Part shown: positions 2,396 to 61,043 of the stretch, one piece after another
How the letters are laid out: every line of letters begins with the position of its first letter
Numbering within the stretch: position 1 is the stretch's first letter
From: Candidatus Omnitrophota bacterium
Lineage (GTDB): Bacteria; Ratteibacteria; UBA8468; B48-G9; DTJG01
Length of the DNA stretch: 64,000 nt
Assembly: GCA_023819255.1 (NCBI GenBank)
Contig: JAMWBU010000001.1
Location: 16,348 to 80,347 of the forward strand
Direction of reading: 5' to 3'
The notes under the pieces: generated by a model
The model's database searches: none
What the model was told of the DNA's origin: nothing
Seen by the model: only the letters and a program-made list of their open reading frames with translations
Made by a program: the position numbers and the translations under genes

Positions 2396-3040
2396 ATGAA
2401 ATTAGAAAAAGTAATATGTGTTGCGCTTTCCGCTGTAATTTTGTCCTTGATGCTTTCCGGTTGCTGCCCTTATTCTAAGAAAAAGACAGCAGAGAAAGAA
2501 ATTCAGCCAGCTGTTGAGGCTGTTTCTCCACAGAAAACTGCTATTGTACAGAGAGAAGAACCGTCTGTTCCTTTGCCTGTAAAGCCCGATATCGAAAAAG
2601 GGAAGGCAACCTCGGCAGAAGTGAAAATTGCGACTACTGGCGGTGAGATACCTGTTGCAAGACCTGAAGGCGATATGAAATTTGTTGAGCCTGGAGAGCA
2701 ACTTAAAGAAATATTCCAGCCAATCTATTTCGATTTTGACAGGTACAATATAAGAACATCCGAGCAGAGCAAGTTGAAAATCCTGGCAGAATATCTAAGA
2801 AAAAATTCAGAGATTTCAATCCTTATCGAAGGGCATTGTGATGAGCGCGGAACAGATGAGTACAACCTTGTGCTTGGGGAGAAAAGGGCTTTGAGTACAA
2901 GAAACTTTCTGATTGGACTTGGCATCGCGCCAGCAAGGATTTACACAATAAGTTATGGAGAAGCAAGGCCAGCAGATCCCGGACACAATGAAGAAGCGTG
3001 GACGAAAAATAGAAGGGCTGAATTCAAAATAAAACAATAA
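2396..3040 (+). CDS. pal: Peptidoglycan-associated lipoprotein Pal (OmpA-family C-terminal domain)
   Basis: Lipobox (LSGCC), then an OmpA_C-like domain: IYFDFDRYNIRTSEQSKL…IEGHCDERGTDEYNLVLGEKRA…NRRAEFKI. RBS aaggagga 8 nt upstream. Confidence 0.9.
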   Translation: MKLEKVICVALSAVILSLMLSGCCPYSKKKTAEKEIQPAVEAVSPQKTAIVQREEPSVPLPVKPDIEKGKATSAEVKIATTGGEIPVARPEGDMKFVEPGEQLKEIFQPIYFDFDRYNIRTSEQSKLKILAEYLRKNSEISILIEGHCDERGTDEYNLVLGEKRALSTRNFLIGLGIAPARIYTISYGEARPADPGHNEEAWTKNRRAEFKIKQ

Positions 3041-3043
3041 ACA

Positions 3044-3868
3044 ATGAAAAATATGCGAAATTTTCTGATACTAATTTTCCCTCTTTTTATGCTGGCAGGT
3101 TGCACTACAATTGTCAGCAGGGAAGATCTTGACGCATTCAAGACAGAAATTGAGCAAAAGCTTGCGGTTGTTGAGAATAATAGTTTAAAAAATTCAAAAG
3201 AAGTCAATGATGGCATTAACAATCTCAAACAATTACATCAGCAGCAACAGGAAACAATTATGGGTGTGGCTGAAGAGAGCAGAGGCCGTATTCAGGAATT
3301 GAAGATTGCTATTGACGATTCAGCCCAGAGTCAGAGAAAGGAATTTGAATTTTTTAAAAAAAACCAGGAAGAAAAAAATTCACAGTTTGGTCAGGATATT
3401 GATACGATTAAAAAGTCTCAGAATGAATTAATGCGGACATCGGCATCACTGATGGATTCTATGGTAAATCTTCAGAAGGACCTTCTGGCTTTAAAGACAT
3501 CCCTTCAACAGGTTGCCAGCGAATTTGACGCGATGAACAATAGAAAATTTATTGACGAGGCAGAAATTTTAAAACTAAAAAAATACTATGATGGACAGAT
3601 AGAGACCTTGCTTAATGAAATCGTGAGACAGGAAAGCGAAATTTTCGCGTTGAAACAGGTTTATCAAAAAAAGCAGGCGTCTCAAGATTTTGAGGTTACT
3701 GGTCACGATTCCAGAGAGATGGCGACAGCGAGGTATCACACAGTGAAAAAGGGTGAAACTCTTTCCGGCATAGCAAAAAAATACAACACAACAAGTCAGA
3801 AACTACGGGAAATAAATAAGTTGAAAACTGATACTGTCACAATTGGTCAAAAACTTGTAATACCATGA
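3044..3868 (+). CDS. Coiled-coil lipoprotein with C-terminal LysM domain. It occupies the CpoB/YbgF position after pal; alternatively a FimV/TsaP-like pilus-associated peptidoglycan binder.
   Basis: Lipobox (MLAGCTT), then a long Q/E/K-rich predicted coiled coil, then a C-terminal LysM motif (YHTVKKGETLSGIAKKYNTTSQKLREINKL…GQKLVIP). It follows pal and overlaps the pilD start. Confidence 0.6.
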   Translation: MKNMRNFLILIFPLFMLAGCTTIVSREDLDAFKTEIEQKLAVVENNSLKNSKEVNDGINNLKQLHQQQQETIMGVAEESRGRIQELKIAIDDSAQSQRKEFEFFKKNQEEKNSQFGQDIDTIKKSQNELMRTSASLMDSMVNLQKDLLALKTSLQQVASEFDAMNNRKFIDEAEILKLKKYYDGQIETLLNEIVRQESEIFALKQVYQKKQASQDFEVTGHDSREMATARYHTVKKGETLSGIAKKYNTTSQKLREINKLKTDTVTIGQKLVIP

Positions 3869-5210: not shown

Positions 5211-7243
5211 CCATGTTATTGCCAGAAACATCAGTGAGGATGATTCCCGGCGTGGGCCCGCAGAGAATGGAACAATTTTTAAATCTGGGCATCAGCACGG
5301 TTCAAGATCTCCTTTTCCATTTTCCAAGAAGATATCTTGACAGAAGACAAATTAAGAAAATAAGCGAGATACTCCCGGGTGAAATTGTTTCCCTGAAGGG
5401 CGAGGTAATTGCCGCGGAAGAAAAGAAATTGCGTAGGATTTCTTTGATCAAAATAGCTGTTTCTGATGGCACAGGTGTGATCTTTCTGATTTTTTTTAAT
5501 CAGAATTATATTATCAATATTCTGAAAACCGGTATGAAGGTTTTTGCATATGGAAAGGTTGAGCAGTATGAGAAAAATTTGCAGATGAACAATCCACTTT
5601 TTGAGATCATAGAAAAAAAAAGGCCTGACTATATTCTTCCTGTCTATTCCACTGTTTCAGGATTGTCTCAGAATTTTATCAGGAAGTGCATAAAATACGC
5701 GCTAAAAAATCTCGAGAGTTTTTCGCCTGATATTTTGCCTTTAGAAGATAGAAGCAGGCTTAAACTTTCGAACATGAAGCATGCCATTACAAATATTCAT
5801 TTTCCGCAGAATCAGGTTAATTTAGAGAGGGCGAGAAGGCACCTGATTTTTGATGAATTCTTCAAACTTCAACTTGGGCTGTTGTACAAAAAAATCTGTG
5901 CCGGTGGCTCATCGGACAGTGTAGATGAAAATAAATTCAGAAGTTCATTAGTTCATATTTTTCAACAAATGCTGCCGTTCAGATTGACGGATGATCAGGT
6001 AAAGGTGATCGAAGAGATTTTGAAAGACCTGAACGCCGGCAGATTATTAAACCGTCTTCTTCAGGGAGAAGTGGGTTCAGGCAAAACCGTCATTGCCGTA
6101 TTTTTTCTGTGGCTTTTTGCCAGGGAAGGATTGCAGGGCGTTTTTCTTGCGCCAACCGAAATTCTGGCTGAGCAGCATTATCTCAACTGGCATCCTTTTT
6201 TTCTTTCTTGCGGGATTGAATGCGCTTTACTTACAGGGGGGCTCCCTGATAAAATGAAAAGGGAAATATGTTTCAGGATCGAAAAAAACGAAATAAAAGT
6301 TTTATTTGGAACTCATGCCCTTTTGAACGAAAAGATCAACTATCCGGGATTGAAAGCGATTGTTGTTGATGAGCAGCATAAATTTGGTGTTGAACAGAGA
6401 AACCTGCTTCAAAAGAAAGGAAGTCGAATCCATTATCTGGCGATGAGCGCAACTCCTATTCCAAGAAGCGTCGCTCTTGCTTTTTATGGAAATATTGACC
6501 TTTCAGCAATTGGCAGTTTGCCGAAAGGAAAAAGAAACGTTGTTAATTATTTATTCAGGCATGATGAAATTGAAAGGGTTTATGAGTTTATTAAAAAACA
6601 GGTTTCTGAACAAAAACAGGGATATTTTGTGGCTCCGACTATTGAAAGTTCAGAAGAGTCGTCAGTTGCGCATCATTTTAATAACATATCGACAATTGTG
6701 GGTCCAGAAAAAGTGGGATTATTGCATGGCAGGTTATCAGGCGCGGAAAAATCCATTGTCATTGAAAAATTCAGAAAAAAGCAAATTTTATTGATTGTTT
6801 CAACAACTGTTATAGAGGTTGGTCTGGATGTGCCGGATGCGAACTTCATCGTTATTGACCAATCTGAAAGATTCGGATTGTCGCAGCTTCATCAAATGCG
6901 GGGAAGAGTTGGCAGGAGTGGTGAAACAGGATACTGTATTTTAATTTACTACACAGATGATCCGGATGTTCTTGGACGGCTTGAATCATTTCTTGAAATA
7001 GAAGATGGTCTTAAACTGGCGGAAATAGACCTGTCCCTGAGGGGCCCGGGAGACCTGCTCGGTGTACGACAGCATGGAATTCTTCCTCTTAAGATTGGCA
7101 ACATAATCAAGGATATAGAGGTTCTTACAGAATCTCGTAAGGAGGCAGAAAGAATTCTAAAAAATCGTCTTTATCTGAATGGAAAATATATGAGGGTTAA
7201 TCAGTACCTTCAGCAGGTTATGAAAGGCAAGATAATTGATTGA
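5207..7243 (+). CDS. recG: ATP-dependent DNA helicase RecG
   Basis: N-terminal wedge/OB domain. Helicase motifs GEVGSGKT (Walker A), DEQHKFGV (DEQH box) and QLHQMRGRVGR (motif VI). Length 678 aa. Confidence 0.9.
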   Translation: MTMLLPETSVRMIPGVGPQRMEQFLNLGISTVQDLLFHFPRRYLDRRQIKKISEILPGEIVSLKGEVIAAEEKKLRRISLIKIAVSDGTGVIFLIFFNQNYIINILKTGMKVFAYGKVEQYEKNLQMNNPLFEIIEKKRPDYILPVYSTVSGLSQNFIRKCIKYALKNLESFSPDILPLEDRSRLKLSNMKHAITNIHFPQNQVNLERARRHLIFDEFFKLQLGLLYKKICAGGSSDSVDENKFRSSLVHIFQQMLPFRLTDDQVKVIEEILKDLNAGRLLNRLLQGEVGSGKTVIAVFFLWLFAREGLQGVFLAPTEILAEQHYLNWHPFFLSCGIECALLTGGLPDKMKREICFRIEKNEIKVLFGTHALLNEKINYPGLKAIVVDEQHKFGVEQRNLLQKKGSRIHYLAMSATPIPRSVALAFYGNIDLSAIGSLPKGKRNVVNYLFRHDEIERVYEFIKKQVSEQKQGYFVAPTIESSEESSVAHHFNNISTIVGPEKVGLLHGRLSGAEKSIVIEKFRKKQILLIVSTTVIEVGLDVPDANFIVIDQSERFGLSQLHQMRGRVGRSGETGYCILIYYTDDPDVLGRLESFLEIEDGLKLAEIDLSLRGPGDLLGVRQHGILPLKIGNIIKDIEVLTESRKEAERILKNRLYLNGKYMRVNQYLQQVMKGKIID

Positions 7244-7935
7244 AAATGAATACAGAAAAAATTGTTGTTTTGATACCGGCGCACAATGAAGAGAAAGCTA
7301 TTGGCAAACTTATAAGCCAGGTTAAAAAGATTATACCGTTAGTTTATGTTGTTGACGATGGCTCTACGGATAATACGGCAATAATGGCGGAACAAAATGG
7401 CGCGATCGTGATCAGGCATCAACAATGCATGGGCAAAGGCGCGGCATTGAAAACAGGATTTAATCGCATTCAAAACCCTCCATTTGAGGTTGTTATCACG
7501 ATGGATGGAGATGGGCAACATTCTGTTTCAGACCTTCCGGTTTTTCTTGATGCGATTGGAAAAAAGAAAAAGGCCGGGATAGTTGTGGGGAAGAGGACAA
7601 TTAAAGGGACAAATATGCCTTTCATCAGAAGGTTAACAAATCTTTCAATGTCGATTCTAATCTCCATTCTTGCTTTGCAGTGGATACCTGATTCCCAGAA
7701 TGGTTTCAGGGCTATAAGAACAAATGTATTGAAAGGAATGCCGCTTGTAAGCTGCCACTTTGAGACTGAGACAGAAATACTTTTACGGGCTTCGTGGAAA
7801 GGAGTGAAAATCGCTTCTGTTCCTGTTAGCACGATATACAATAATGAAAAGAGCAAGATAAAACCAACAAAAGATACAATAAACTTTTTCTCAATGCTGT
7901 TAAAACTTTGCTTTTTTGTATGGAAGAAAAAATAG
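7240..7935 (+). CDS. GT2-family glycosyltransferase, polyprenyl-phosphate sugar transferase-like (DPM1/GtrB/ArnC-like)
   Basis: IVVLIPAHNEEKAIGKLI…VYVVDDGSTDNT…ITMDGDGQH DXD-type motifs, plus a C-terminal hydrophobic segment. Confidence 0.75.
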   Translation: MKMNTEKIVVLIPAHNEEKAIGKLISQVKKIIPLVYVVDDGSTDNTAIMAEQNGAIVIRHQQCMGKGAALKTGFNRIQNPPFEVVITMDGDGQHSVSDLPVFLDAIGKKKKAGIVVGKRTIKGTNMPFIRRLTNLSMSILISILALQWIPDSQNGFRAIRTNVLKGMPLVSCHFETETEILLRASWKGVKIASVPVSTIYNNEKSKIKPTKDTINFFSMLLKLCFFVWKKK

Positions 7936-8567
7936 ATTTTGAGAGATTACGAAAAGAAATGGTCAGGCATCAGATACAGGGCAGGGGAATTACTAATGAG
8001 AATGTACTGACAGCTTTTCTCAAGATACCGCGGGAGGAATTTGTTCCGCAGGAGATGAAAAATTTTGCCTATGATGATTGTCCGCTTCCTATTGGTTCTG
8101 GTCAAACAATCAGTCAGCCATATATGGTGGCAATTATGACTGAACTGGCAGAGCCTGAAAAAGGTGATAAAGTACTTGAAATTGGAACCGGTTCAGGTTA
8201 TCAAACATCGCTTCTTTGTGAAATGGGTTGTGTGGTTTACTCAATGGAAAGGATTCCAGAACTTGCAGAAAGAGCAAAACAAACACTGGAAAAACTGGGA
8301 TATAAACCCGTAATTATTATTGGTGATGGCACGCGGGGTTGTCAGGAAAATTCGCCGTATAAAATAATTATTGTGACCGCGGGTGCTCCAGAAATACCAA
8401 AATCGCTTGTCGAACAACTTGATGAAAACGGCAGAATCATTATTCCTGTTGGAGATATGTTTTCGCAGGAACTGATTCGTGGAATAAAAAGAAAGGGAAA
8501 ACTTATTCGGGAATTTCATGGTGGTTGTCAGTTTGTGCCTTTAAAGGGTAAGGAAGGCTGGAAGTAA
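7920..8567 (+). CDS. pcm: Protein-L-isoaspartate O-methyltransferase
   Basis: GSGQTISQPYMVAIMTELAEP…VLEIGTGSGYQTSLL SAM-binding motifs. The ORF opens at 7908; MEEK at 7920 is the more likely start. Confidence 0.85.
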   Translation: MEEKIDFERLRKEMVRHQIQGRGITNENVLTAFLKIPREEFVPQEMKNFAYDDCPLPIGSGQTISQPYMVAIMTELAEPEKGDKVLEIGTGSGYQTSLLCEMGCVVYSMERIPELAERAKQTLEKLGYKPVIIIGDGTRGCQENSPYKIIIVTAGAPEIPKSLVEQLDENGRIIIPVGDMFSQELIRGIKRKGKLIREFHGGCQFVPLKGKEGWK

Positions 8568-9197
8568 TCAGGGTTTTTTAATTTTTCCAAACTTGTGTTT
8601 AATAAACCAGATAACGCAAACAATGATAACAAGAAAAATCAGGTATTCAAATTTTCTGTAATAAATCTCAATATGTGACCAATTCTGGCCAAGAAAAAAA
8701 CCAATGTATGAAAGAAAGTAGGACCAGATAAGAGAGCCCAAGAATGTCAGTATGCAAAATTTCAAAAAGGGTGTTTTTGCAACACCAGCCGGCAGTGAAA
8801 TAAAAGTTCTAACGGCAGGCATTATTCTTGAAAAAAACACTATTGAATCTCCATATTTTCTGAACCATTTTTCAGCTGTATCATAATCCTGTTCTGTAAT
8901 CAAAATAAATTTCCCATTTTTTCTTATCCATTGTCTTAGCAATCTATCTTCAAGCCAGAAGCCAAGCCAGTATGCTCCAACTGATCCGACAAGGTTTGCA
9001 AAAGCGCCTGTAAAACTGAGAATGTGTATGTTCATCTTTTCAGCAGAAACAAGATATCCCGCAAAAGGCATTGTAATCTCGGATGGGATCGGGATAAGAG
9101 CTGATTCAAAGGTCATAAGAATGAACACGCCAGCATAGCCTGTTTTTTCAATCACAGAAACGATAAGACCGGCAATGTATGAAAGGATGTTTTCCAC
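8568..9197 (-). CDS. DedA/SNARE-associated family inner membrane protein
   Basis: VFILMTFESALIPIPSEITMPFAGYL… DedA signature with several TM helices. Confidence 0.75.
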   Translation of the reverse strand: MENILSYIAGLIVSVIEKTGYAGVFILMTFESALIPIPSEITMPFAGYLVSAEKMNIHILSFTGAFANLVGSVGAYWLGFWLEDRLLRQWIRKNGKFILITEQDYDTAEKWFRKYGDSIVFFSRIMPAVRTFISLPAGVAKTPFLKFCILTFLGSLIWSYFLSYIGFFLGQNWSHIEIYYRKFEYLIFLVIIVCVIWFIKHKFGKIKKP

Positions 9198-9217
9198 CGC
9201 ATTTCCTCTTGATTAAA

Positions 9218-52934: not shown

Positions 52935-54008
52935 ATGCAAATTCGTATTAATCTGCAATTCAATCTATGTTATTATATCAATATGATTATGATACCTAAA
53001 TTTGGGCTTAAAAGATTTTCAATAAACAAGACGAAAAATATAATAAATATTTTGATTATAGGTTTAAGTTCTATTGGAGATAATCTGTTAATTTCGCCAT
53101 CCATAAGGTTGATCAAGGATTGTTGTGAGAATTCCTCCATTGATTTTGTTGTGGGTCCAAGAGCTGCTGCTTTCGCAGAAAAAAATCCGTTATTCTCAAA
53201 CACTTACATCTGGGATAAAAAAACAGGGGTAAAAACTCTTATAAAAATTATAGAAAACAGGAAATACGATCTTATAGTTGATTTCAGAAACTCCTTGACT
53301 CCATTTTTCTTAAATGCAGAATGCAGATTAACTTTTTTTGTTAAAGAATTGTTTTCAAGGAAGAGTTCAATCCATGAAGCAGAGAGAACAGTTAGATTTC
53401 TTGAGCCATATTTTGGAAAGATGGAAAGCGTGGAATTATATTTTCCTCTTTATGAGGCGGAAATTGATGAATACAAAAAGGTTTTTGAAAGAACCGGAAT
53501 TTCTCTGGATTTAGATAATTTTATTGTTTTGAATCCAGGGGCAGCTTTTGAAAAGAAAAGATGGGATAAAGACAGGTTTGCTGAGGTTGCGAGAGCCATC
53601 ATATCAAAATATGGCGTGAAAGTTATAATTGTCGGAAGCAGTAATGAGATTGATTTAGCCGGGGAAATTGCCGCGAAAATACACGATGAAAGAGTTTTTA
53701 GCCTTGCTGGTCAAATCAGCTTCAGGCAGCTTGCCTGCCTTCTATCAAAATCTAAATTATTGATCACGAACGACACAGGAACAATGCATCTTGCCTCAGC
53801 AATGAAGTGTCCTGTGATCGCGATTTTCGGTCCTGGAAATCCATTAAGATATGGACCCATCGGCACAAAAAGCATCGTTCTTCATACAGAAAGAAAATGC
53901 TTTCCCTGCAGATTGGAAGCGAGATGCAACAAGAATTTTATTTGTATGAATGATGTAAAAGTGCAGGATGTTATCTCTGCAGTTGATAATCTCTTGAAAA
54001 CGCGCTAA
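52935..54008 (+). CDS. GT9-family glycosyltransferase (ADP-heptose:LPS heptosyltransferase-like)
   Basis: …VLNPGAAFEKKRWDKDRF…LITNDTGTMHLASAMKCPVIAIFGPGNP… GT9 signature. The start may be the internal M at about 52983. Confidence 0.75.
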   Translation: MQIRINLQFNLCYYINMIMIPKFGLKRFSINKTKNIINILIIGLSSIGDNLLISPSIRLIKDCCENSSIDFVVGPRAAAFAEKNPLFSNTYIWDKKTGVKTLIKIIENRKYDLIVDFRNSLTPFFLNAECRLTFFVKELFSRKSSIHEAERTVRFLEPYFGKMESVELYFPLYEAEIDEYKKVFERTGISLDLDNFIVLNPGAAFEKKRWDKDRFAEVARAIISKYGVKVIIVGSSNEIDLAGEIAAKIHDERVFSLAGQISFRQLACLLSKSKLLITNDTGTMHLASAMKCPVIAIFGPGNPLRYGPIGTKSIVLHTERKCFPCRLEARCNKNFICMNDVKVQDVISAVDNLLKTR

Positions 54009-54012
54009 AAAT

Positions 54013-54855
54013 TTATTCTGATTCAAGCCCCCAATTTTTCATATTTTCAAAGCTAATCTTTATTGCATCCCAGAGAGGATAAAGAGGAGAAAAGTCCATT
54101 TCCATTATTGCATATTTTGCGCTGGATTTTTTTGCTGCTGGAAGAATTTTTTGCCAGTTAAGATTACCAGTTCCGACAGGTACCATCGCCTGTTTATTAT
54201 CGGGGGACATTCCCATATCCTTGAAATGTATTGAGTTTAACCTTTTTGCATAATTTGTAATCCACTGAGCAGGGTCCCCCCCTCCATATTGAACCCAGTA
54301 TGTATCTATCTGCGCGGTAAGGGTACTTTCTGAGCTGCCCTCCATTATAATTTCAAGCCATGTTTTACCATCGCATTTTGCAAATTCAATTCCATGATTG
54401 TGATATCCGAGAGTAATTCCGTGTGCCTTCAGTGTGGAGGCAGCCCTTTCTATTTTTTCAGCTATTTTCTTTATGGCATCGATATCATGCGATTGAGAAC
54501 CAGGCCAGCTGATATTGCAGCAAAGGGCATTGAGTTTTGTCTGTTCGCTGGCAATGGCTTCTGGTTCTTTCAGTATTCTGTCAAGTCCGGTATGGCTTGA
54601 ACATATTTTCAATCCATTGTCATCCATAATTTTTTTAAACTGTTGTGGGTCGAGATTTGCCAGTCCTGCTGTTTCAACATATCTGTATCCGATATCTGAC
54701 AGTTTCTTTACAGCTTTCGAAAACTCTTCTATAGAACCATAAAATTCCCTGATAGTGTATAATTGAATTGCAATTTTCACTTTCCCCTCCCTGTGGTTTG
54801 ATTTTAACTGGCAGATATTTAATTCGAGTTTTATTTCTCTGTCAAATTTTTCCAC
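54013..54855 (-). CDS. Sugar phosphate isomerase/epimerase (xylose isomerase-like TIM barrel)
   Basis: IAIQLYTIREF… N-terminus and conserved His/Glu/Asp metal ligands (HNHG, IHFKD). Overlaps the ABC ATPase stop. Confidence 0.7.
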   Translation of the reverse strand: MEKFDREIKLELNICQLKSNHREGKVKIAIQLYTIREFYGSIEEFSKAVKKLSDIGYRYVETAGLANLDPQQFKKIMDDNGLKICSSHTGLDRILKEPEAIASEQTKLNALCCNISWPGSQSHDIDAIKKIAEKIERAASTLKAHGITLGYHNHGIEFAKCDGKTWLEIIMEGSSESTLTAQIDTYWVQYGGGDPAQWITNYAKRLNSIHFKDMGMSPDNKQAMVPVGTGNLNWQKILPAAKKSSAKYAIMEMDFSPLYPLWDAIKISFENMKNWGLESE

Positions 54856-55634
54856 GATTCAGGGATACCAAAAACATATGGTTTCCCTGATACTGGATGC
54901 GGATAAACAAGAACATTCGTGTGATAAACATCTTCTATGATTTCGAATTTTATTACATCCTGAACTTCTCCAAATTTTATTACAGAACCGTTTTTCAGTA
55001 AAAGAATATTTTCACAATACTGGGAAGCAAGGTTGAGGTCGTGAAGGGCAGCAAGGATCGATAAATCTGATGTTTTTTGAAGAGTTTTTAAGAGGTCAAG
55101 AAAGGCAAATTGAAATCCAATGTCAAGATGTGATGTCGGTTCATCGAGAACAATTAATTCTGGTTCCTGAACAAGGCATTGAGCAAGCAGAACTCTTTGT
55201 TTTTCGCCTTCTGACATCTGAAAAATTGTTCTATCAAAGAACGGAGTTAGCTCCATTTGCTTTGAAATTGACACAATGATTTCAATGTCTCTTTTTGAGG
55301 GATTGCGAAAATCTGATGAGAATGGATATCTTGCCATCAAAAGTAATTCCTTTACAGTATATGGATATGCAATTTCAATATCTGATGGTAAAAAAGAGAC
55401 ACTTTTAGCAAAATCGCGGGCTGAAATTTTTCCTGTGTCAGTGTTTTTAAATAACACCTGTCCCTTTGAGTGTCGAAGAATTTTCACCGCGGTTTTTAGC
55501 AGAGTTGATTTTCCACTGCCATTTGGTCCAATAACTCCCACAAAATTTCCTTTTTTCATTTGAAAACTGATGTTGTGAAGAATTTCTTCTTTGCCATAAG
55601 CAGCACTGACATTTTTGAATTCAAGTATTACCAT
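54831..55634 (-). CDS. btuD: ABC transporter ATP-binding protein, corrinoid/iron-siderophore type (BtuD/FepC-like)
   Basis: GPNGSGKSTLLK (Walker A), LSEGEKQRV (signature) and VLDEPTSHLD (Walker B). Confidence 0.8.
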   Translation of the reverse strand: MVILEFKNVSAAYGKEEILHNISFQMKKGNFVGVIGPNGSGKSTLLKTAVKILRHSKGQVLFKNTDTGKISARDFAKSVSFLPSDIEIAYPYTVKELLLMARYPFSSDFRNPSKRDIEIIVSISKQMELTPFFDRTIFQMSEGEKQRVLLAQCLVQEPELIVLDEPTSHLDIGFQFAFLDLLKTLQKTSDLSILAALHDLNLASQYCENILLLKNGSVIKFGEVQDVIKFEIIEDVYHTNVLVYPHPVSGKPYVFGIPESWKNLTEK

Positions 55635-56608
55635 TTTTGTTTTCTCGCTGTTTTGAGAAGTAAGAAAACAAATATTATACCGCCAAAAAAGCCGCTTATA
55701 ACACCTACTGGAATTTCAATCGGTTGTACGATTGTTCGTGCAAGGGTATCAGCAAGTATCAAAAAAGAGCCTCCAACCAGTATTGTGGATGGTATCGTTT
55801 TTTTGTGGTCTGCTCCGACCAGGATTCTTACAGCATGCGGAATTACAAGACCCACAAAGCCAACAAGTCCGGCAAGAGAAACGCAGTATCCGGTAATCAA
55901 TCCTGTGATGACAAACCAGATGTATTTTTTCTTTTCCGGGTCAAGCCCGAGTGCGACAGATTTTTCTTCGCCCATTGAAAAAATATTAAGTTGTTTCCAG
56001 AACAGCCATGTGACCGCGTACGCGGGCAAGAGAAATAGAGGAGCAATTTTGAGAACATCTGATTGATAACTGCTCAGATTTCCCATAAACCAGATTACTG
56101 CTTCCATAAACCGTTCTTTTTGTAGCAATGTTATTACAAGCAGAGAAAAGGAAGAGAATATGAAATTTAGCATTATTCCAATTAGAATCAGTGTCCCCGC
56201 AGATAGTTTTCTTATTGATGCAGCCAGCAGCAGAACAAGTATTGATAAAATGCTGCCGGCAAACGCAAAAACAGGTATGGATGCCATCTGTCCCAGAATA
56301 ATTCCAGCAGCGATTCCAATGCTGGCTCCTCCGGAAATACCCAGTATGTAACTTTCAGCAAGTGGATTTTTCAGGATTGCCTGTAATATCAGTCCTGACA
56401 GTGAAAGACCGGATCCAACCAGAAAGGCGCACCACACTCTTGGTATCCTGATTTGAAAAAGAATTGTGCTTTCAAATTGATAATCATAAGGTTTTGAAAA
56501 TATTCTTATCAATTTCAGTGGAGAATAAGTTTCAATACCCGAGCAGACTCCTGTGAGAATGGCGACACCTGTTAATGTAATGATTAATAAAGATGCTTTC
56601 TTTTTCAA
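55628..56608 (-). CDS. btuC: ABC transporter permease, FecCD/BtuC family
   Basis: Polytopic, about 9 TM. FecCD signature region …LAESYILGISGGASIG…. Confidence 0.8.
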   Translation of the reverse strand: MKKKASLLIITLTGVAILTGVCSGIETYSPLKLIRIFSKPYDYQFESTILFQIRIPRVWCAFLVGSGLSLSGLILQAILKNPLAESYILGISGGASIGIAAGIILGQMASIPVFAFAGSILSILVLLLAASIRKLSAGTLILIGIMLNFIFSSFSLLVITLLQKERFMEAVIWFMGNLSSYQSDVLKIAPLFLLPAYAVTWLFWKQLNIFSMGEEKSVALGLDPEKKKYIWFVITGLITGYCVSLAGLVGFVGLVIPHAVRILVGADHKKTIPSTILVGGSFLILADTLARTIVQPIEIPVGVISGFFGGIIFVFLLLKTARKQKW

Positions 56609-57438
56609 TTTTTCAGAAATTCTGAAATGGTTTTGATGGACCTTAGAAAACTCAAGGGAGTTGGGCTACAGAAGTCATAGTCGTCCACCCGAAAAATTTG
56701 ATTTTTTTTGACCGCTTTAACATTTTTAAATGAATTCCAGAAATTCATTGCGTATTCGTCTTCTCCCATTCCCATTACAATGATGACATCAGGGTTCCTT
56801 TTGATCACTTCTTCAACATTCACTGTGATATATTTTGTTTTTATGTTATTAAAAATATTTGTGCCTCCGGCATAAAGCGAGATTTCATTAAAATAGGTAT
56901 TTGAACCAGCAGTAAAAAGAGGTCGAGTGCCTATCTGCCAGAAAATTGTTTTCTTTCTGGCAAATCTTTTTTGCCTGTATTTTATAAGTTCGAAATCCAC
57001 ATCATCAATGATTTTTTTTGCAATATCCTTTTTTCCGAATATTTCAGCAAGTGTGAGAAAATTATTCTTGAGATTTTCATAATTTACCACTTCATCAAGG
57101 ACCTTAACCTTTATTCCTAAATTTATAAGGTTTTCCACAGTTTGTTTGCGATTACCTTCTTTGCTTGCGATTACTATGTCAGGTTTAATTTTTATTATTG
57201 CCTCGATATTTGGATCCAGCAAAGTTCCTATAATTTCTCTTCCTTTTTTTACCTCTGGCTTTTCGTGAATTGTAACACCGATGATTTCTTTTTCTATTCC
57301 AAGTAGCAGTAAATTTTCGGTAATATAAGGTCCAAGAGAAACTACCCTTGAAAATTGCCGTGATGTTGTTTCAGAATGACAATTGCAGGTTAAAATTGTC
57401 AGAATAAAAAAAAACATTACTAAAATTTTTCTCATCAT
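56605..57438 (-). CDS. btuF: Periplasmic substrate-binding protein, class III (BtuF/FepB-like)
   Basis: Signal peptide, then RVVSLGPYITENLLLLGI…IIGV typical of the BtuF/FhuD fold. Confidence 0.7.
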   Translation of the reverse strand: MMRKILVMFFFILTILTCNCHSETTSRQFSRVVSLGPYITENLLLLGIEKEIIGVTIHEKPEVKKGREIIGTLLDPNIEAIIKIKPDIVIASKEGNRKQTVENLINLGIKVKVLDEVVNYENLKNNFLTLAEIFGKKDIAKKIIDDVDFELIKYRQKRFARKKTIFWQIGTRPLFTAGSNTYFNEISLYAGGTNIFNNIKTKYITVNVEEVIKRNPDVIIVMGMGEDEYAMNFWNSFKNVKAVKKNQIFRVDDYDFCSPTPLSFLRSIKTISEFLKN

Positions 57439-58334
57439 TTGATCTCATAAAGCGAAACAGTCTGCGCAATTTTTTTAATATGCAAAGAAGTTGTACCGCA
57501 ACAGCCGCCAATGATTGATGCGCCAGCTTCTATCAGTTTATAAACATATTGCGCCATATCTTCTGGAGTATCAGGATAAACAGTTTTACCTGAAATGAGC
57601 TGTGGAACTCCAGCATTTGGTTTTACCCATACCGGGAGATTTGATGCTTCTTTCATTTCTTTTGCGATTACAACAAAATCCTTTATTCCAGAACCGCAAT
57701 TTGAGCCGATAACATCTGCTCCATTATTTTTAAGCAGAGTGGCACATTCTGAAGGGCTCTGCCCCATCAGTGTTTTATAACCCCTTGCTCCTGGATTGAA
57801 AGTAATGCTGACAACAACTTCTTTTGAAATTTTTCTTGCTGCTATCAATGCGCAAACCGCCTCTCTGACATCGCTCATAGTTTCAATGACTATTCCATCG
57901 GCTCCTGCATTTATAAGTATCTGCACCTGTTGACTGTAACAATCGAAAACTTCTTTTTCGCTCAATGTTCCATACGGCTGTAAAAGTTCTCCTGTCGGAC
58001 CCACAGACGCAAAAACCAATTTATTTCCGGCTACCTTTTTTGAAATTTTAACACCTGAACTATTTATTCGTTCAATCCTATCCTCAGCGCCAAACTTTTT
58101 CAATTTGAAAAAGTTTCCGCCAAATGTGTTTGTGAGAATTATATCTGCTCCGGCTTCTATGTATGATCGCGCTATCTTTTCTATTATCTCTGGATGTGTG
58201 ATGTTCAATAATTCAGGATAGATTCCCTTCGCACATTTTTCTTTTGAAATTTCAGTGCCCCATGCTCCGTCTGACACAAGAATTTTTTTTTTGTTCAATA
58301 ACTCCAGTAGATTGCTCATATTTTTATTATACAA
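57435..58334 (-). CDS. Homocysteine S-methyltransferase domain protein (MmuM / MetH N-terminal-domain-like, Zn-dependent)
   Basis: …LVSDGAWGTEI…ADIILTNTFG… and the zinc-binding GGCCGT motif. 299 aa. Confidence 0.75.
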   Translation of the reverse strand: MYNKNMSNLLELLNKKKILVSDGAWGTEISKEKCAKGIYPELLNITHPEIIEKIARSYIEAGADIILTNTFGGNFFKLKKFGAEDRIERINSSGVKISKKVAGNKLVFASVGPTGELLQPYGTLSEKEVFDCYSQQVQILINAGADGIVIETMSDVREAVCALIAARKISKEVVVSITFNPGARGYKTLMGQSPSECATLLKNNGADVIGSNCGSGIKDFVVIAKEMKEASNLPVWVKPNAGVPQLISGKTVYPDTPEDMAQYVYKLIEAGASIIGGCCGTTSLHIKKIAQTVSLYEIK

Positions 58335-58343
58335 CAGTTCCGG

Positions 58344-59054
58344 TTATTCAAGATCATACAGTGACGCGTCTGAAGAAAGATCCCCAAGATTTTTATCGTT
58401 TGCGCTTGTGTTATACTTCGTTCCAATAGATTCAACATGACCGTCGCAAAATAGAACATTTGCTCTTTCATTATGCCTGAAATGCGTATTTGGGCCAAAA
58501 TAATAGATGTCTCCCGGTGCTCTTAAATAATTATTCGCAATTGTTTCTGAAGTCCAGCTTGACCAGATTGCGCTATCTGCCACAAGAACGGTCTGTGATG
58601 GATTTTGAATTCTACTTAATTTTGCAGGCAGGTCTGCCTGTCCTACCCAATCAGAATATCCTCCCCCAATATACGATGCATTGTAGGCATATCCAGTATA
58701 CGGCCTATCGTATGATTTAAGAGTGAATCTCGAGGGGCACTGGAAAACCTTTTCATTAAGGTATTTTCCAATTATACCCGGTTTCCAGTTTGTCCAGTCA
58801 TCAGTTGCAAAGTCCCAGCCGATTTCACCTGTAAATGAAGCATAGTATGTGGGTGGGAAAAATTCGTCATTATCCTGAACATACATTGCAAAGGCAAGAT
58901 ATATTTGTTTTAAATTGCTCAAGCAAACTGCAGATCTTGCTTTTTCTCTTGCCTTTGCCAGCACTGGTAATAGTAGCGCTGCCAGTATAGCGATTATAGC
59001 CACCACCACCAGAAGTTCTATCAGAGTGAAACCTGACTGCCTTTTCCTGTCCAT
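58344..59054 (-). CDS. Prepilin-type N-terminal cleavage/methylation domain protein with a C-terminal DUF1559 (H-X9-DG) domain
   Basis: [32 protein letters not shown] (G|FTLIE prepilin motif). [13 protein letters not shown] fits H-X9-DG. Confidence 0.8.
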
Positions 59055-59076
59055 ACTGACTCCTTGTTTTATGCGG

Positions 59077-59330
59077 GCAAAATAAAAACCCGCCTGACGG
59101 CGGGCTGCACCCTGATTCCTTTGCCCATCATCGCGTCCTGTGCTCCGCAGGGTCGCTTTAATCCGTCTCGCAGGCAGGTCTTCTGACTTCTCTTATTCTG
59201 ACCAGCCTTCCCATTCATATGAACAGTGGCACTTCAGGCCAGAATCACCCATCAGGATATGGGTCGAGTTACAGCGCCGGGAGCGTGTCTGATTTTCACA
59301 GACTTCCCTATTAAGCCAACTTTTGGCGCC
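59077..59330 (-). promoter_or_regulatory. Cobalamin (AdoCbl/B12) riboswitch with an intrinsic-terminator expression platform
   Basis: Minus-strand RNA reads …UUAAUAGGGAAGUCUGUGAAAAUCAGACACGCUCCCGGCGCUGUAA…GUGCCACUGUUCAUAUGAAUGGGAAGGCUGGUCAGAAUAAGAGAAGUCAGAAGACCUGCC…. These match the cobalamin riboswitch cores (AGGGAA, GUGAAAAUC, GCCACUG, and the B12 box AGUCAGAAGACCUGCC). It is followed by the hairpin CCCGCC-GUCA-GGCGGG plus UUUUUAUUUU at 59077..59104. The region is GC-rich in an AT-rich genome. Confidence 0.8.
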
Positions 59331-59415
59331 TGCGAAATTTGAAATTATTTTAGAATATTTTTTTTTATCTGTCAAGGGTCTGAATTGCGCCACAGTAAAT
59401 CTATCCAGAGAGGTG

Positions 59416-60237
59416 TCATATAAACATTATTCCTGCGTATCCAACCACCTGTTCAAAATCCCCTGAAACATTCCCGCTATTTGTATAATCAACAAGTATT
59501 CCCTGTCGGGCTTCAAGAATTTTTGATGCGGTAATTGCGGCAGTGATCGGTGCGAAACCGCATATACTAATATCATGTTCTGAAACAATGTTCAAAAACT
59601 CATCTGCGTCAAGTTTGAGTATTTTTTCGATTGCCATTCTGTCTTTTTTCTCTGCCTGTTCAGCCGGTTCATAGTGAGTGAAATCCGAACTTGCAACTAC
59701 AATCGCATTTCTTTTTATTTCGCTAAGTGCCAGGGCAATTGAATATCCTATTTCATACCATGGATTTGCATCATACATGCTTGAAATTAAAACAGGTACA
59801 ATTTTCACAGCAGGATTTAAAAATTGCAGAAAAGGAACCTGTACTTCAATGGAATGTTCGGATTTGTGTGACATAGAATCAATTTGAAGATATCTGCTTT
59901 TCTCAAGCAACTTTTTTCTTATTTCAGTGTCTATTTCAACATTACCAATCGGTGTTTCCCACTCATCGCTATCATCTATTGCATAAGGTTCGCCGTAGCC
60001 ATGATGGTTTGGCCCGAGTATAATTGCTGTTTCAAACTGAGCAATTTTTCCGTAGACCTTACCTGCTGTTTTTCCGCTGTAGACATAACCGGCATGCGGG
60101 CAGATGATTCCCTTTGGGATGATTTTATTTTCTTCGTATACAATGTATTTTTTCAAATCTTCAATGAGATTGGTTTTCATTCCGGGGTAAAAATACCCGC
60201 TTACAGATGGTTTTCTGATTTTTTTCATTTTGATCAA
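59416..60237 (-). CDS. MEMO1-family protein (AmmeMemoRadiSam system protein B-like)
   Basis: …GIICPHAGYVYSGKTAGKVY… and overall Memo-like dioxygenase-fold motifs. 273 aa. Confidence 0.7.
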   Translation of the reverse strand: MIKMKKIRKPSVSGYFYPGMKTNLIEDLKKYIVYEENKIIPKGIICPHAGYVYSGKTAGKVYGKIAQFETAIILGPNHHGYGEPYAIDDSDEWETPIGNVEIDTEIRKKLLEKSRYLQIDSMSHKSEHSIEVQVPFLQFLNPAVKIVPVLISSMYDANPWYEIGYSIALALSEIKRNAIVVASSDFTHYEPAEQAEKKDRMAIEKILKLDADEFLNIVSEHDISICGFAPITAAITASKILEARQGILVDYTNSGNVSGDFEQVVGYAGIMFI

Positions 60238-61043
60238 TAACTCAGTTTAACCGCAAGTGTTTTCAGAAAATCCCTTGCCTTTGTTATGTCTGCTTCCGGA
60301 TTTTTTCCAACTTCTCTTTCGATAGTAAAAAATCCGTTAAAACCGATATCTTTCATTGCTTTTAGATACTCGGGGAAATTTACATTTCCTTCACCAAGTG
60401 GCAGTTCTTTCCACCTTTTTTTCCCATTTTCGTCAGCAAGTTTAATTCCGTCTTTCGCATGTGTGTGGACTATATAGTCTTTCAACGTATATACACCTTT
60501 TACAGGGTCATCGCCAGCCACCATAACAAGATTTGCCGGGTCATAATTAACCATGATGCCGGGATTGTTCAATTCCACCAATAGTTTTTTTAGAATTTCT
60601 GCTGGCTCAGGCCCGGTTTCAGTAGCTAACACAATTCCTTTATTTGCGGCATAATTACCCACTTCTGGCAGGGATTGCAGCAAGAGTTTCCATTCAACAG
60701 CCTCTTGATTTTCCGGCACAATTCCAATGTGAGTCGTTACAATTTTTACTCCGAGCTCAAGCGCAAGGTCAATTACTTCAATGGTTCTACCAACACGCCA
60801 GTCAAGGGTTTTTGAATCTGTGAAGCCATGTCCTCCAAAATCTCCGACAATTGCCGATATTTCAAGCCCGAGGTCAGACACAAACTTTTTAAAATCACTT
60901 CTTGCGGTTTTGGACATATTTGCTGGATCCAGTTCTCCTTTCGTTGCATACGGCTGAATTCCATCAAGGGACAATTCCTTCGCTTTTTTTATTGCGTCTT
61001 TGACAGGAATTCTGAAACAATCAGGAATGACTCCGATTTTCAC
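60234..61043 (-). CDS. Sugar phosphate isomerase/epimerase (xylose isomerase-like TIM barrel), second copy
   Basis: Same fold signature with conserved E/H/D ligands (…ATETG…, …HTHAKDG…, …FTIERE…). Distinct in sequence from the 54013..54855 copy. Confidence 0.65.
   Translation of the reverse strand: MKIGVIPDCFRIPVKDAIKKAKELSLDGIQPYATKGELDPANMSKTARSDFKKFVSDLGLEISAIVGDFGGHGFTDSKTLDWRVGRTIEVIDLALELGVKIVTTHIGIVPENQEAVEWKLLLQSLPEVGNYAANKGIVLATETGPEPAEILKKLLVELNNPGIMVNYDPANLVMVAGDDPVKGVYTLKDYIVHTHAKDGIKLADENGKKRWKELPLGEGNVNFPEYLKAMKDIGFNGFFTIEREVGKNPEADITKARDFLKTLAVKLSY

Follow-up and report, generated by a model that had tools for sequence, protein, structure and literature searches.

A pilin-like DUF1559 protein in a riboswitch-controlled vitamin B12 uptake locus

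Introduction

Why is a pilin-like protein encoded at the head of a vitamin B12 uptake operon? The question is raised by a 64-kb stretch of DNA from a Candidatus Omnitrophota bacterium (assembly GCA_023819255.1, contig JAMWBU010000001.1, positions 16,348 to 80,347), which is called the window here at its full length. In the window, a cobalamin riboswitch is followed by the gene of a prepilin-type DUF1559/H-X9-DG protein and then by genes for a homocysteine methyltransferase and a BtuFCD-like importer. The riboswitch and the ATP-binding cassette (ABC) importer are known elements, while a pilin-type protein in a vitamin-uptake regulon is unusual. DUF1559 has been described as a large paralogous family without an assigned function, and one planctomycete has 68 copies, two of which are essential (PMC10632474). 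The DUF1559/H-X9-DG proteins are among the largest uncharacterised paralogous families in Planctomycetota, Verrucomicrobiota, Lentisphaerota, Omnitrophota, and Armatimonadota. A riboswitch is a direct functional label, since it marks a protein that is wanted exactly when corrinoids are scarce. Thus, the locus provides the first ligand-linked functional context for the DUF1559 family. In this study, I found that the riboswitch-controlled B12 uptake locus with its unprecedented pilin-like component is real and conserved, and apparently undescribed.

A pilin-like gene behind a cobalamin riboswitch

The operon and its leader all lie on the minus strand of the window. A cobalamin riboswitch aptamer (RF00174) was found at 59348..59156 with the Rfam covariance model. 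The match is not truncated (model positions 1-189 of 189) and scores 93.4 bits against a gathering score of 31.5, with an E value of 6.6e-22. It is the only riboswitch that the Rfam search found in the whole window. A sigma-70-like promoter (TTGACA-17 nt-TAAAAT, 11/12 matches) at 59375..59347 abuts the 5′ edge of the aptamer and is the top-scoring site in a promoter scan of 53900..59600. Between the aptamer and the ribosome-binding site lies a predicted expression platform at 59106..59077, which reads AGCCCGCC-GTCA-GGCGGGTT and then TTTATTTT. Its G-C-rich hairpin (59106..59087) has eight pairs, six of which are G-C, and a loop of four residues, and is followed by the T-run of an intrinsic terminator. 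The hairpin is present in both the minimum free energy fold and the centroid fold of the leader. The ribosome-binding site AAGGAG (59065..59060), as read from the sequence, is located 5 nt ahead of the ATG codon at 59054. By analogy with the known behaviour of this riboswitch class, the leader is probably a transcription-terminating off-switch. The first-pass annotation had placed the locus at 54831-59330. This interval leaves out the promoter and ends 18 nt short of the full aptamer, and the 5′ boundary was extended to 59348 for the aptamer and to 59375 for the promoter.

The gene order claimed in that annotation (DUF1559, homocysteine S-methyltransferase, BtuF, BtuC, and BtuD behind the riboswitch and the terminator) was found in full. 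The genes are tightly packed; a 9-nt gap follows the first gene, and the next three junctions are overlaps of 4, 4, and 7 nt. Inside the operon, the terminator scan gave no convincing minus-strand terminator, the one weak candidate (57352..57331) having three G-C pairs and a poor T-tail.

What kind of protein is the first gene product? The gene (59054..58344) encodes 236 amino acid residues, and it is the only DUF1559 gene in the window. The protein has a class III signal peptide with a short basic leader, Gly at position -1, Phe at +1, Glu at +5, and a hydrophobic alpha-1N segment. It is matched by the prepilin models PF07963 (40.2 bits) and TIGR02532 (33.2 bits). The G-1/F+1/E+5 signal (F9 and E13 in the window protein) is invariant in 98 orthologues. 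AlphaFold2, run on an alignment of database proteins only, gave a model with a predicted local distance difference test (pLDDT) value of 90.5 and a predicted template modelling (pTM) score of 0.82. In the model, a long helix of about 50 residues (11-61) is followed by a beta-rich head of about 175 residues. Thus, the window protein is predicted to have the architecture of a type IV pilin.

The family models are matched only in part. PF07596 (SBP_bac_10) scores 42.3 bits against a gathering score of 23.3, but residues 34-79 align with profile positions 2-46 of 268 and the head domain is not covered. Therefore, the protein represents a divergent subfamily. The H-X9-DG model TIGR04294 matches residues 192-210 with 28.1 bits against 19. 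About 26 conserved residues follow the motif, unlike the C-terminal placement of the TIGR04294 model. The subfamily can be recognised by its diagnostic motifs, which are WDF, RP-x-TGYAYN, YLRAP, HFRHN...DGH, and a C-terminal tail LGDLS-x-DD-x-YDL. The invariant or near-invariant head residues include W80, D81, T120-G-Y-A-Y-N125, Y128, D160, L177-R-A-P180, H191-F-R-H194, D204-G205, and L226-S...Y233-D-L of the tail. The family profile matched only the pilin alpha-1 helix among PDB sequences, and a Foldseek search of the PDB gave no significant match. Thus, the head domain has no close solved relative.

Conservation and specificity of the pairing

Is the pairing of the riboswitch and the pilin-like gene found elsewhere? 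The nearest database relatives (52-89% identity) are labelled Omnitrophica, Ratteibacteria, and Armatimonadetes, and their head domains are very well conserved. In the contigs of six relatives, the flanking genes differ in every lineage while the pilin-like gene always stands beside B12 genes. One relative (P0009, 83% identity) has the same operon as the window. Two others (P0078 and P0034, 58-64%) have two tandem DUF1559 genes followed by S-methyl_trans, Pterin_bind, and BtuFCD genes. The gene is directly followed by BtuFCD in a fourth (P0105, 52%) and lies between CobA/BtuR and BtuFCD in a fifth (P0060, 61%). In the last case (P0022, 67%), the gene is monocistronic and an RF00174 match of 111 bits lies directly upstream, so the riboswitch serves that gene alone.

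I performed a metagenome scan seeded with the head-domain motifs only, which gave 80 loci with identities from 85% down to 29%. Among the first 12 of these loci, Rfam placed RF00174 ahead of the gene in 11, and the twelfth had no upstream DNA. A custom covariance model was made from 15 such riboswitches and all loci were searched with it, so that part of the riboswitch calls rest on this model. Four weak hits were confirmed by Rfam as RF00174 or as the adenosylcobalamin (AdoCbl) family RF01482. As a negative control, 80 generic DUF1559 loci (identity of 41% or less) were picked through the N-terminal pilin helix. The loci were ranked with a hidden Markov model (HMM) of the head domain, and a riboswitch was counted when it lay on the same strand within 2.7 kb upstream; loci with less than 450 nt of upstream DNA were left out. 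A riboswitch was found at 20/20 loci scoring 200 bits or more (14/14 clusters at 80% identity), at 12/13 loci between 140 and 200 bits (12/13 clusters), and at 6/10 loci between 100 and 140 bits (6/10 clusters). Between 60 and 100 bits, 12/27 loci were positive, or 10/27 if two control loci (L002 and L027) are not taken as positive, whose weak custom-model matches were unconfirmed by Rfam at the gathering level. The generic DUF1559 loci below 60 bits had none (0/60). Of the four riboswitch-negative loci at 100-140 bits, three still have the gene next to BtuC/D(F) genes. The distance from the aptamer end to the start codon is typically 100-200 nt.

These results show that the pairing is conserved and specific, as the share of riboswitches falls with the head-domain score. 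The expectation that DUF1559 genes recur near RF00174 or btuFCD in relatives was borne out, in at least 32 clusters at 80% identity with unrelated flanks. The loci scoring 100 bits or more fall into 21 clusters at 60% identity and have G+C contents of 28-72%. Contigs with the pairing are labelled Armatimonadota, Verrucomicrobiota, and Planctomycetota, and include one with a Candidatus Kuenenia label (L003) and one of Chthoniobacteraceae (L011). The link to B12 that had been proposed for DUF1559 thus holds for one distinct subfamily and not for DUF1559 at large. A database census gave 11,914 DUF1559-like representative clusters at E<=1e-30, and roughly 100 clusters (50% identity) lie in the score range of the subfamily. 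The subfamily and the generic DUF1559/TIGR04294 proteins of Planctomycetota, Verrucomicrobiota, and Lentisphaerota share the prepilin helix (AREKAR..C.SNLKQ) and the H-X9-DG motif. In contrast, only the subfamily is linked to riboswitches, and it has head motifs of its own and, beyond the DG residues, a conserved acidic tail at the C-terminus.

Could the gene be a mere passenger, a member of a very large family that came by accident to lie between a riboswitch and the genes it really controls? The sheer number of DUF1559-like clusters, and the 68 paralogues of the single planctomycete (PMC10632474), would make such an accident conceivable. However, the graded riboswitch linkage across the head-domain scores (20/20, 12/13, and 6/10 in the subfamily, 0/60 in generic loci) effectively refutes it. 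Some riboswitches control this gene alone, the subfamily-specific head motifs are conserved, and the window has no other DUF1559 gene. A chance insertion is therefore extremely improbable. It had also been asked whether the DUF1559 gene might be regulated separately from the B12 genes. It is not, since the riboswitch and the terminator immediately precede the gene in the window, and in some lineages (L084 and L097) the riboswitch serves that gene alone. The subfamily almost certainly belongs to the cobalamin regulon.

Two loci are unusual with regard to their riboswitches. In an AT-rich locus (L137, 6659-11700), genes for BtuF, BtuC, BtuD, and a CobQ-like protein come after the subfamily gene, and no riboswitch was found there by the custom model or by Rfam at the gathering level. 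This locus may be regulated otherwise or may carry a divergent aptamer. Another locus (L104) has near-identical cobalamin riboswitch copies at 2996-3176 and 5795-5975, 2.8 kb apart. The first copy is followed only by minus-strand genes, including one for a DUF3800-like protein. The arrangement suggests an insertion that duplicated the leader.

Operon architectures and companion proteins

I found three types of operon with the subfamily gene. In the first, which accounts for about 15 of the 20 high-scoring loci with downstream DNA, the riboswitch and the pilin-like gene are followed by BtuFCD, sometimes together with the homocysteine methyltransferase and with or without a separate pterin-binding protein. 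In the second, the riboswitch and the pilin-like gene stand alone (L084 and L097) or are followed by cobU/cobT-like genes (L112). In the third, found in G+C-rich lineages (L121, L123, L126, L128, L130, and L135), the pilin-like gene is accompanied, in varying order, by genes for a secreted protein and for a PEP-CTERM protein of about 185 residues.

The secreted companion has about 410-530 residues and an N-terminal motif S-x-VVSYSNLG...P-x-SVLGKPT. It is encoded at 7533-8996 in L135, 3384-4895 in L121, 7505-8851 in L123, 7413-9008 in L126, 5246-6676 in L128, and 7365-8609 in L130. No Pfam, NCBIfam, or PDB sequence family matched it. A shorter relative of its N-terminal region is encoded by the first gene of another operon (L164).

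For the PEP-CTERM companion, no Pfam family was found even at E<=10, DUF4430 included. Among the companion proteins, the searches of Pfam and NCBIfam gave just one weak match, to the SCO2322 family. Since there was no DUF4430 match, the PEP-CTERM companion was classified by its fold. Its predicted fold matches the solved cobalamin-binding beta-domains of transcobalamin and intrinsic factor, the next unrelated fold scoring 7.1 in this comparison. Unlike these domains and RUMGNA_00854 (3u7z), the companion is anchored through PEP-CTERM, and it is absent from the window operon. On the evidence of the modelled fold, operons of the third type demonstrably encode cell-surface corrinoid-handling proteins. 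This strengthens a transport reading for their common component, the pilin-like protein. The companions also provide two more candidate families of surface B12-handling proteins, namely the PEP-CTERM transcobalamin-beta-like protein and the family-less secreted protein.

The same operons bring up another explanation. The pilin-like protein may be a specialised pseudopilin of a type II secretion system (T2SS)-like machine that has been adapted to export corrinoid-scavenging proteins, with no corrinoid contact of its own. The co-operonic secreted proteins without a family, and the PEP-CTERM proteins of which one class is transcobalamin-beta-like, would be natural cargo in the G+C-rich lineages. 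However, candidate cargo is missing from the window operon and from most operons in the top score class (200 bits or more), which encode only BtuFCD with or without the methyltransferase. In addition, PEP-CTERM proteins would be expected to depend on exosortase and not on a T2SS. I regard a pure export role as quite unlikely.

Two more arrangements were observed. A more distant DUF1559 clade (60-100 bits; L158, L161, L164, L166, and L011 at 5825-8762) is without the C-terminal tail. Its gene stands last in riboswitch-controlled operons that begin with genes for secreted or PEP-CTERM proteins of no assigned function. In the Chthoniobacteraceae contig (L011), for example, the riboswitch precedes a multi-gene operon that ends in the DUF1559 gene. 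In two loci, tandem DUF1559 paralogues of about 39% identity lie behind one riboswitch (7191-7985 and 8001-8729 in L087; 8001-8753 and 8698-9579 in L092). These pairs are reminiscent of a major and a minor pilin.

A possible route of corrinoids through the outer envelope

What might a pilin-like protein do in the cobalamin regulon? It is probable that the subfamily has some role in corrinoid acquisition at the envelope, and the first-pass proposal of a part in corrinoid capture or delivery is partly supported. A more specific reading, which I prefer although the chances are about even, is that a pilin-like or pseudopilin-like component moves corrinoid through the outer envelope to BtuF. Transcription would start at the sigma-70-like promoter and proceed through the aptamer into the intrinsic terminator. 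The terminator would form when corrinoid is abundant. Read-through under corrinoid scarcity would lead to synthesis of the pilin-like protein, the homocysteine methyltransferase, and the importer. Prepilin peptidase would cut the pilin-like protein after Gly8. Type IV pilus or T2SS-type machinery, encoded elsewhere in the window, would then build it into a short pilus or pseudopilus, or attach it to one, and this structure would pass a secretin. The head of about 175 residues might take up corrinoid directly or be loaded by a binder on the surface; the transcobalamin-beta-like PEP-CTERM protein of other lineages would be such a binder. Retraction or a piston-like motion might carry the corrinoid into the periplasm, where it would be handed to BtuF and imported by BtuCD. 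The pilin-like protein would thus substitute for the outer-envelope step of the TonB-dependent BtuB of Proteobacteria.

This route is favoured by the leader and operon structure, the synteny conserved among unrelated flanks, the graded riboswitch linkage, the pilin signal and modelled fold, and the pilus machinery with a secretin in the window. It is also favoured by the BtuB searches. With an E. coli BtuB query, no match was found in the window and 174 loci (about 1.5 Mb) by tblastn (E<=0.1) or phmmer (E<=10), an absence that is local and of low sensitivity, as a single query was used. No Plug or TonB_dep_Rec family was found in the six relative contexts annotated with Pfam. Several points weigh against the route. 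Assembly into a filament is suggested solely by the pilin signal and the predicted fold. The pilus-machinery genes do not travel with the subfamily gene; this idea was rejected, as such genes are adjacent only in L130, and L093 has one opposite-strand T2SSE gene. The head domain resembles no known B12 binder, BtuF and BtuG included, in sequence and fold comparisons. Where a transcobalamin-like partner is present, this partner is the more evident candidate binder; the pilin-like protein need not be the binder and may be a conduit or an adaptor instead. As the co-transcribed homocysteine methyltransferase shows, the operon is a general B12-starvation response, and membership in the regulon alone is no proof of transport. 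The relatives all come from metagenome-assembled genomes or metagenome contigs, so that the co-occurrence is seen at the level of the locus.

Is a filament needed at all? The protein may be a periplasmic corrinoid binder or chaperone tethered to the membrane, in which the pilin N-terminus does no more than direct export and hold the protein in the inner membrane. The head would stay in the periplasm, where it would bind corrinoid or dock BtuF and concentrate the substrate at BtuCD. The adjacency to BtuF-like genes in most of the high-scoring loci fits such a protein, as do the Pfam name of the family (SBP_bac_10) and the lack of co-localised pilus-machinery genes. However, F+1 and E+5, which serve pilin processing and subunit packing, are invariant, and the predicted fold is pilin-like rather than that of a periplasmic binding protein. 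An outer-envelope role also agrees better with the units in which the gene is monocistronic and with the operons that include surface-anchored PEP-CTERM partners. The tethered binder would also leave unexplained how corrinoids cross the outer membrane. Thus, I consider it unlikely, although it is the strongest competitor of the envelope route.

A further explanation is that the protein is an adhesin induced by B12 starvation, which would fix the cell to corrinoid-producing partner cells or particles and would take no direct part in transport. Type IV pilins are commonly adhesive, and bacteria of the Omnitrophota/Ratteibacteria type, to which the window belongs, are small-celled and may depend on partners. 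However, the pairing spans the very different lineages and G+C contents described above, and the tight translational coupling to BtuF, BtuC, and BtuD argues for a stoichiometric transport partner. An adhesin is very unlikely.

If corrinoids do take the pilus route, the prediction of B12 auxotrophy and cross-feeding in uncultured phyla will change, since it is now scored on btuB and btuFCD only. The locus makes testable how B12 is taken up by bacteria that have an outer membrane and whose uptake loci carry no BtuB-type receptor. A much broader idea, which is tentative and rather doubtful, is that DUF1559-type proteins are substrate-specific pilin or pseudopilin adaptors for TonB-independent uptake, in which nutrients are pulled through the secretin of a pilus/T2SS-like machine. 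If this is true, the B12-linked subfamily would be the first DUF1559 member with an assigned cargo, namely corrinoids. The dozens of paralogues in bacteria of the Planctomycetes-Verrucomicrobia-Chlamydiae (PVC) type would be explained by one machine with many cargo adaptors, and a vitamin would be taken up across the outer membrane by a categorically new mechanism.

Comparison with known systems

The locus resembles the B12 uptake system of E. coli (btuB riboswitch, BtuB, and BtuFCD) in two respects. A cobalamin riboswitch of the off type probably controls the uptake genes, and the importer is a type II ABC importer with a cluster-A binding protein, a FecCD permease, and an ATPase. In contrast, the pilin-like protein leads here, and the searches of the operon, the window, and the related loci gave neither BtuB nor any other TonB-dependent receptor. 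The nearest analogies within B12 uptake are Bacteroides BtuG and BtuH, reportedly surface B12-capture lipoproteins that work with BtuB. As in these loci, the present operons encode accessory, extracytoplasmic, riboswitch-controlled proteins that would act before the inner-membrane step. However, there is no sequence or fold similarity to BtuG and BtuH, and the present protein combines a prepilin signal of class III with a predicted pilin fold, with no BtuB nearby.

Among the nearest functional analogies are the type IV pili and pseudopili of competence, in which a minor pilin binds the substrate (ComP and ComGC). Here, the putative substrate would not be DNA but a cofactor of 1.3 kDa; the head is larger (about 175 residues), and the sequences are unrelated. 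Another analogy is the fibres of the planctomycete crateriform structures, which bind dextran; these fibres handle macromolecules, and the genes of their subunits were not identified (Boedeker et al. 2017, PMC5394234). The shared idea is that pilus-like fibres capture a nutrient without TonB-type transport, but that study draws no link to DUF1559 or B12. The DUF1559 family goes unmentioned in a comparative-genomics study of B12 utilisation (PMC2667541). Full-text literature searches, with subscription journals mostly outside their reach, gave no link of DUF1559 or pilins to cobalamin. This agrees with the first-pass view that the association is undescribed.

Other genes of the operon and the window

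The second gene of the operon (58334..57435) encodes a stand-alone homocysteine S-methyltransferase of 299 residues. PF02574 is its sole Pfam family (244.7 bits, full length, residues 19-293), and its translation shows the Cys motifs SNCGSG and GGCCGT of the Zn site. It scores below every NCBIfam equivalog cut-off. The protein is without pterin-binding or B12-binding modules and is not a five-module MetH (homocysteine-binding, pterin-binding, B12 cap, B12-binding, and reactivation). The gene recurs in operons of the Omnitrophota/Ratteibacteria type. In two more distant relatives (L087 at 8748-10470 and L092 at 9637-11350), a separate Pterin_bind gene follows the methyltransferase gene, which corresponds to MetH modules 1 and 2 with no B12-binding module.

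The next three genes encode a type II importer, with a Peripla_BP_2 binding protein, a FecCD permease, and an ABC ATPase in one operon behind RF00174. The periplasmic substrate-binding protein (57438..56605, 277 residues) matches PF01497 with 94 bits, and its best NCBIfam match is BtuF (NF002894) with 116 bits against a cut-off of 234. The permease (56608..55628, 326 residues) has PF01032 at 271.6 bits and BtuC (NF003001) at 199 bits against 334. For the ATPase (55634..54831, 267 residues), PF00005 scores 102.9 bits and BtuD (NF002981) 121 bits against 281, and it lies under the cut-off for all models of heme, Fe-siderophore, and corrinoid ATPases. Since the equivalog cut-offs were missed, the three proteins are named BtuF-like, BtuC-like, and BtuD-like.

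A candidate assembly system for the pilin-like protein may be encoded by a complete type IV pilus/T2SS-like gene cluster at 10351..23065 on the minus strand, about 36 kb from the operon. The cluster includes genes for a PilB-type ATPase (21383-23065, T2SSE 471 bits), a PilC platform protein (20153-21379, T2SSF 194 bits), and two tandem pilins of about 135 residues each with N_methyl matches (starts near 18204 and 17768). It also has PilM (PilM_2, 137 bits), PilN (28.8 bits), and PilO genes, the PilO match of 20.0 bits being below the cut-off of 22, and a gene for a SPOR-domain protein. These are accompanied by genes for a secretin (12460-14163, 136 bits), a minor pilin (11649-12194), and a DUF7305 protein (10351-11649), all on the same strand.

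Does the operon extend beyond btuD? A gene for a xylose-isomerase-like triosephosphate isomerase (TIM)-barrel protein (54855..54013, minus strand, PF01261 66.2 bits) overlaps the end of btuD by 25 nt, if the GTG start is used. Its inclusion in the operon had been suggested as a possibility. Co-transcription may occur, as there is no minus-strand terminator after btuD, but the gene is not a core member, because it was found only in the close relatives (L081, L095, and L096). A second xylose-isomerase-like TIM-barrel gene lies at 60234-61043 on the minus strand, and the two genes flank the operon region.

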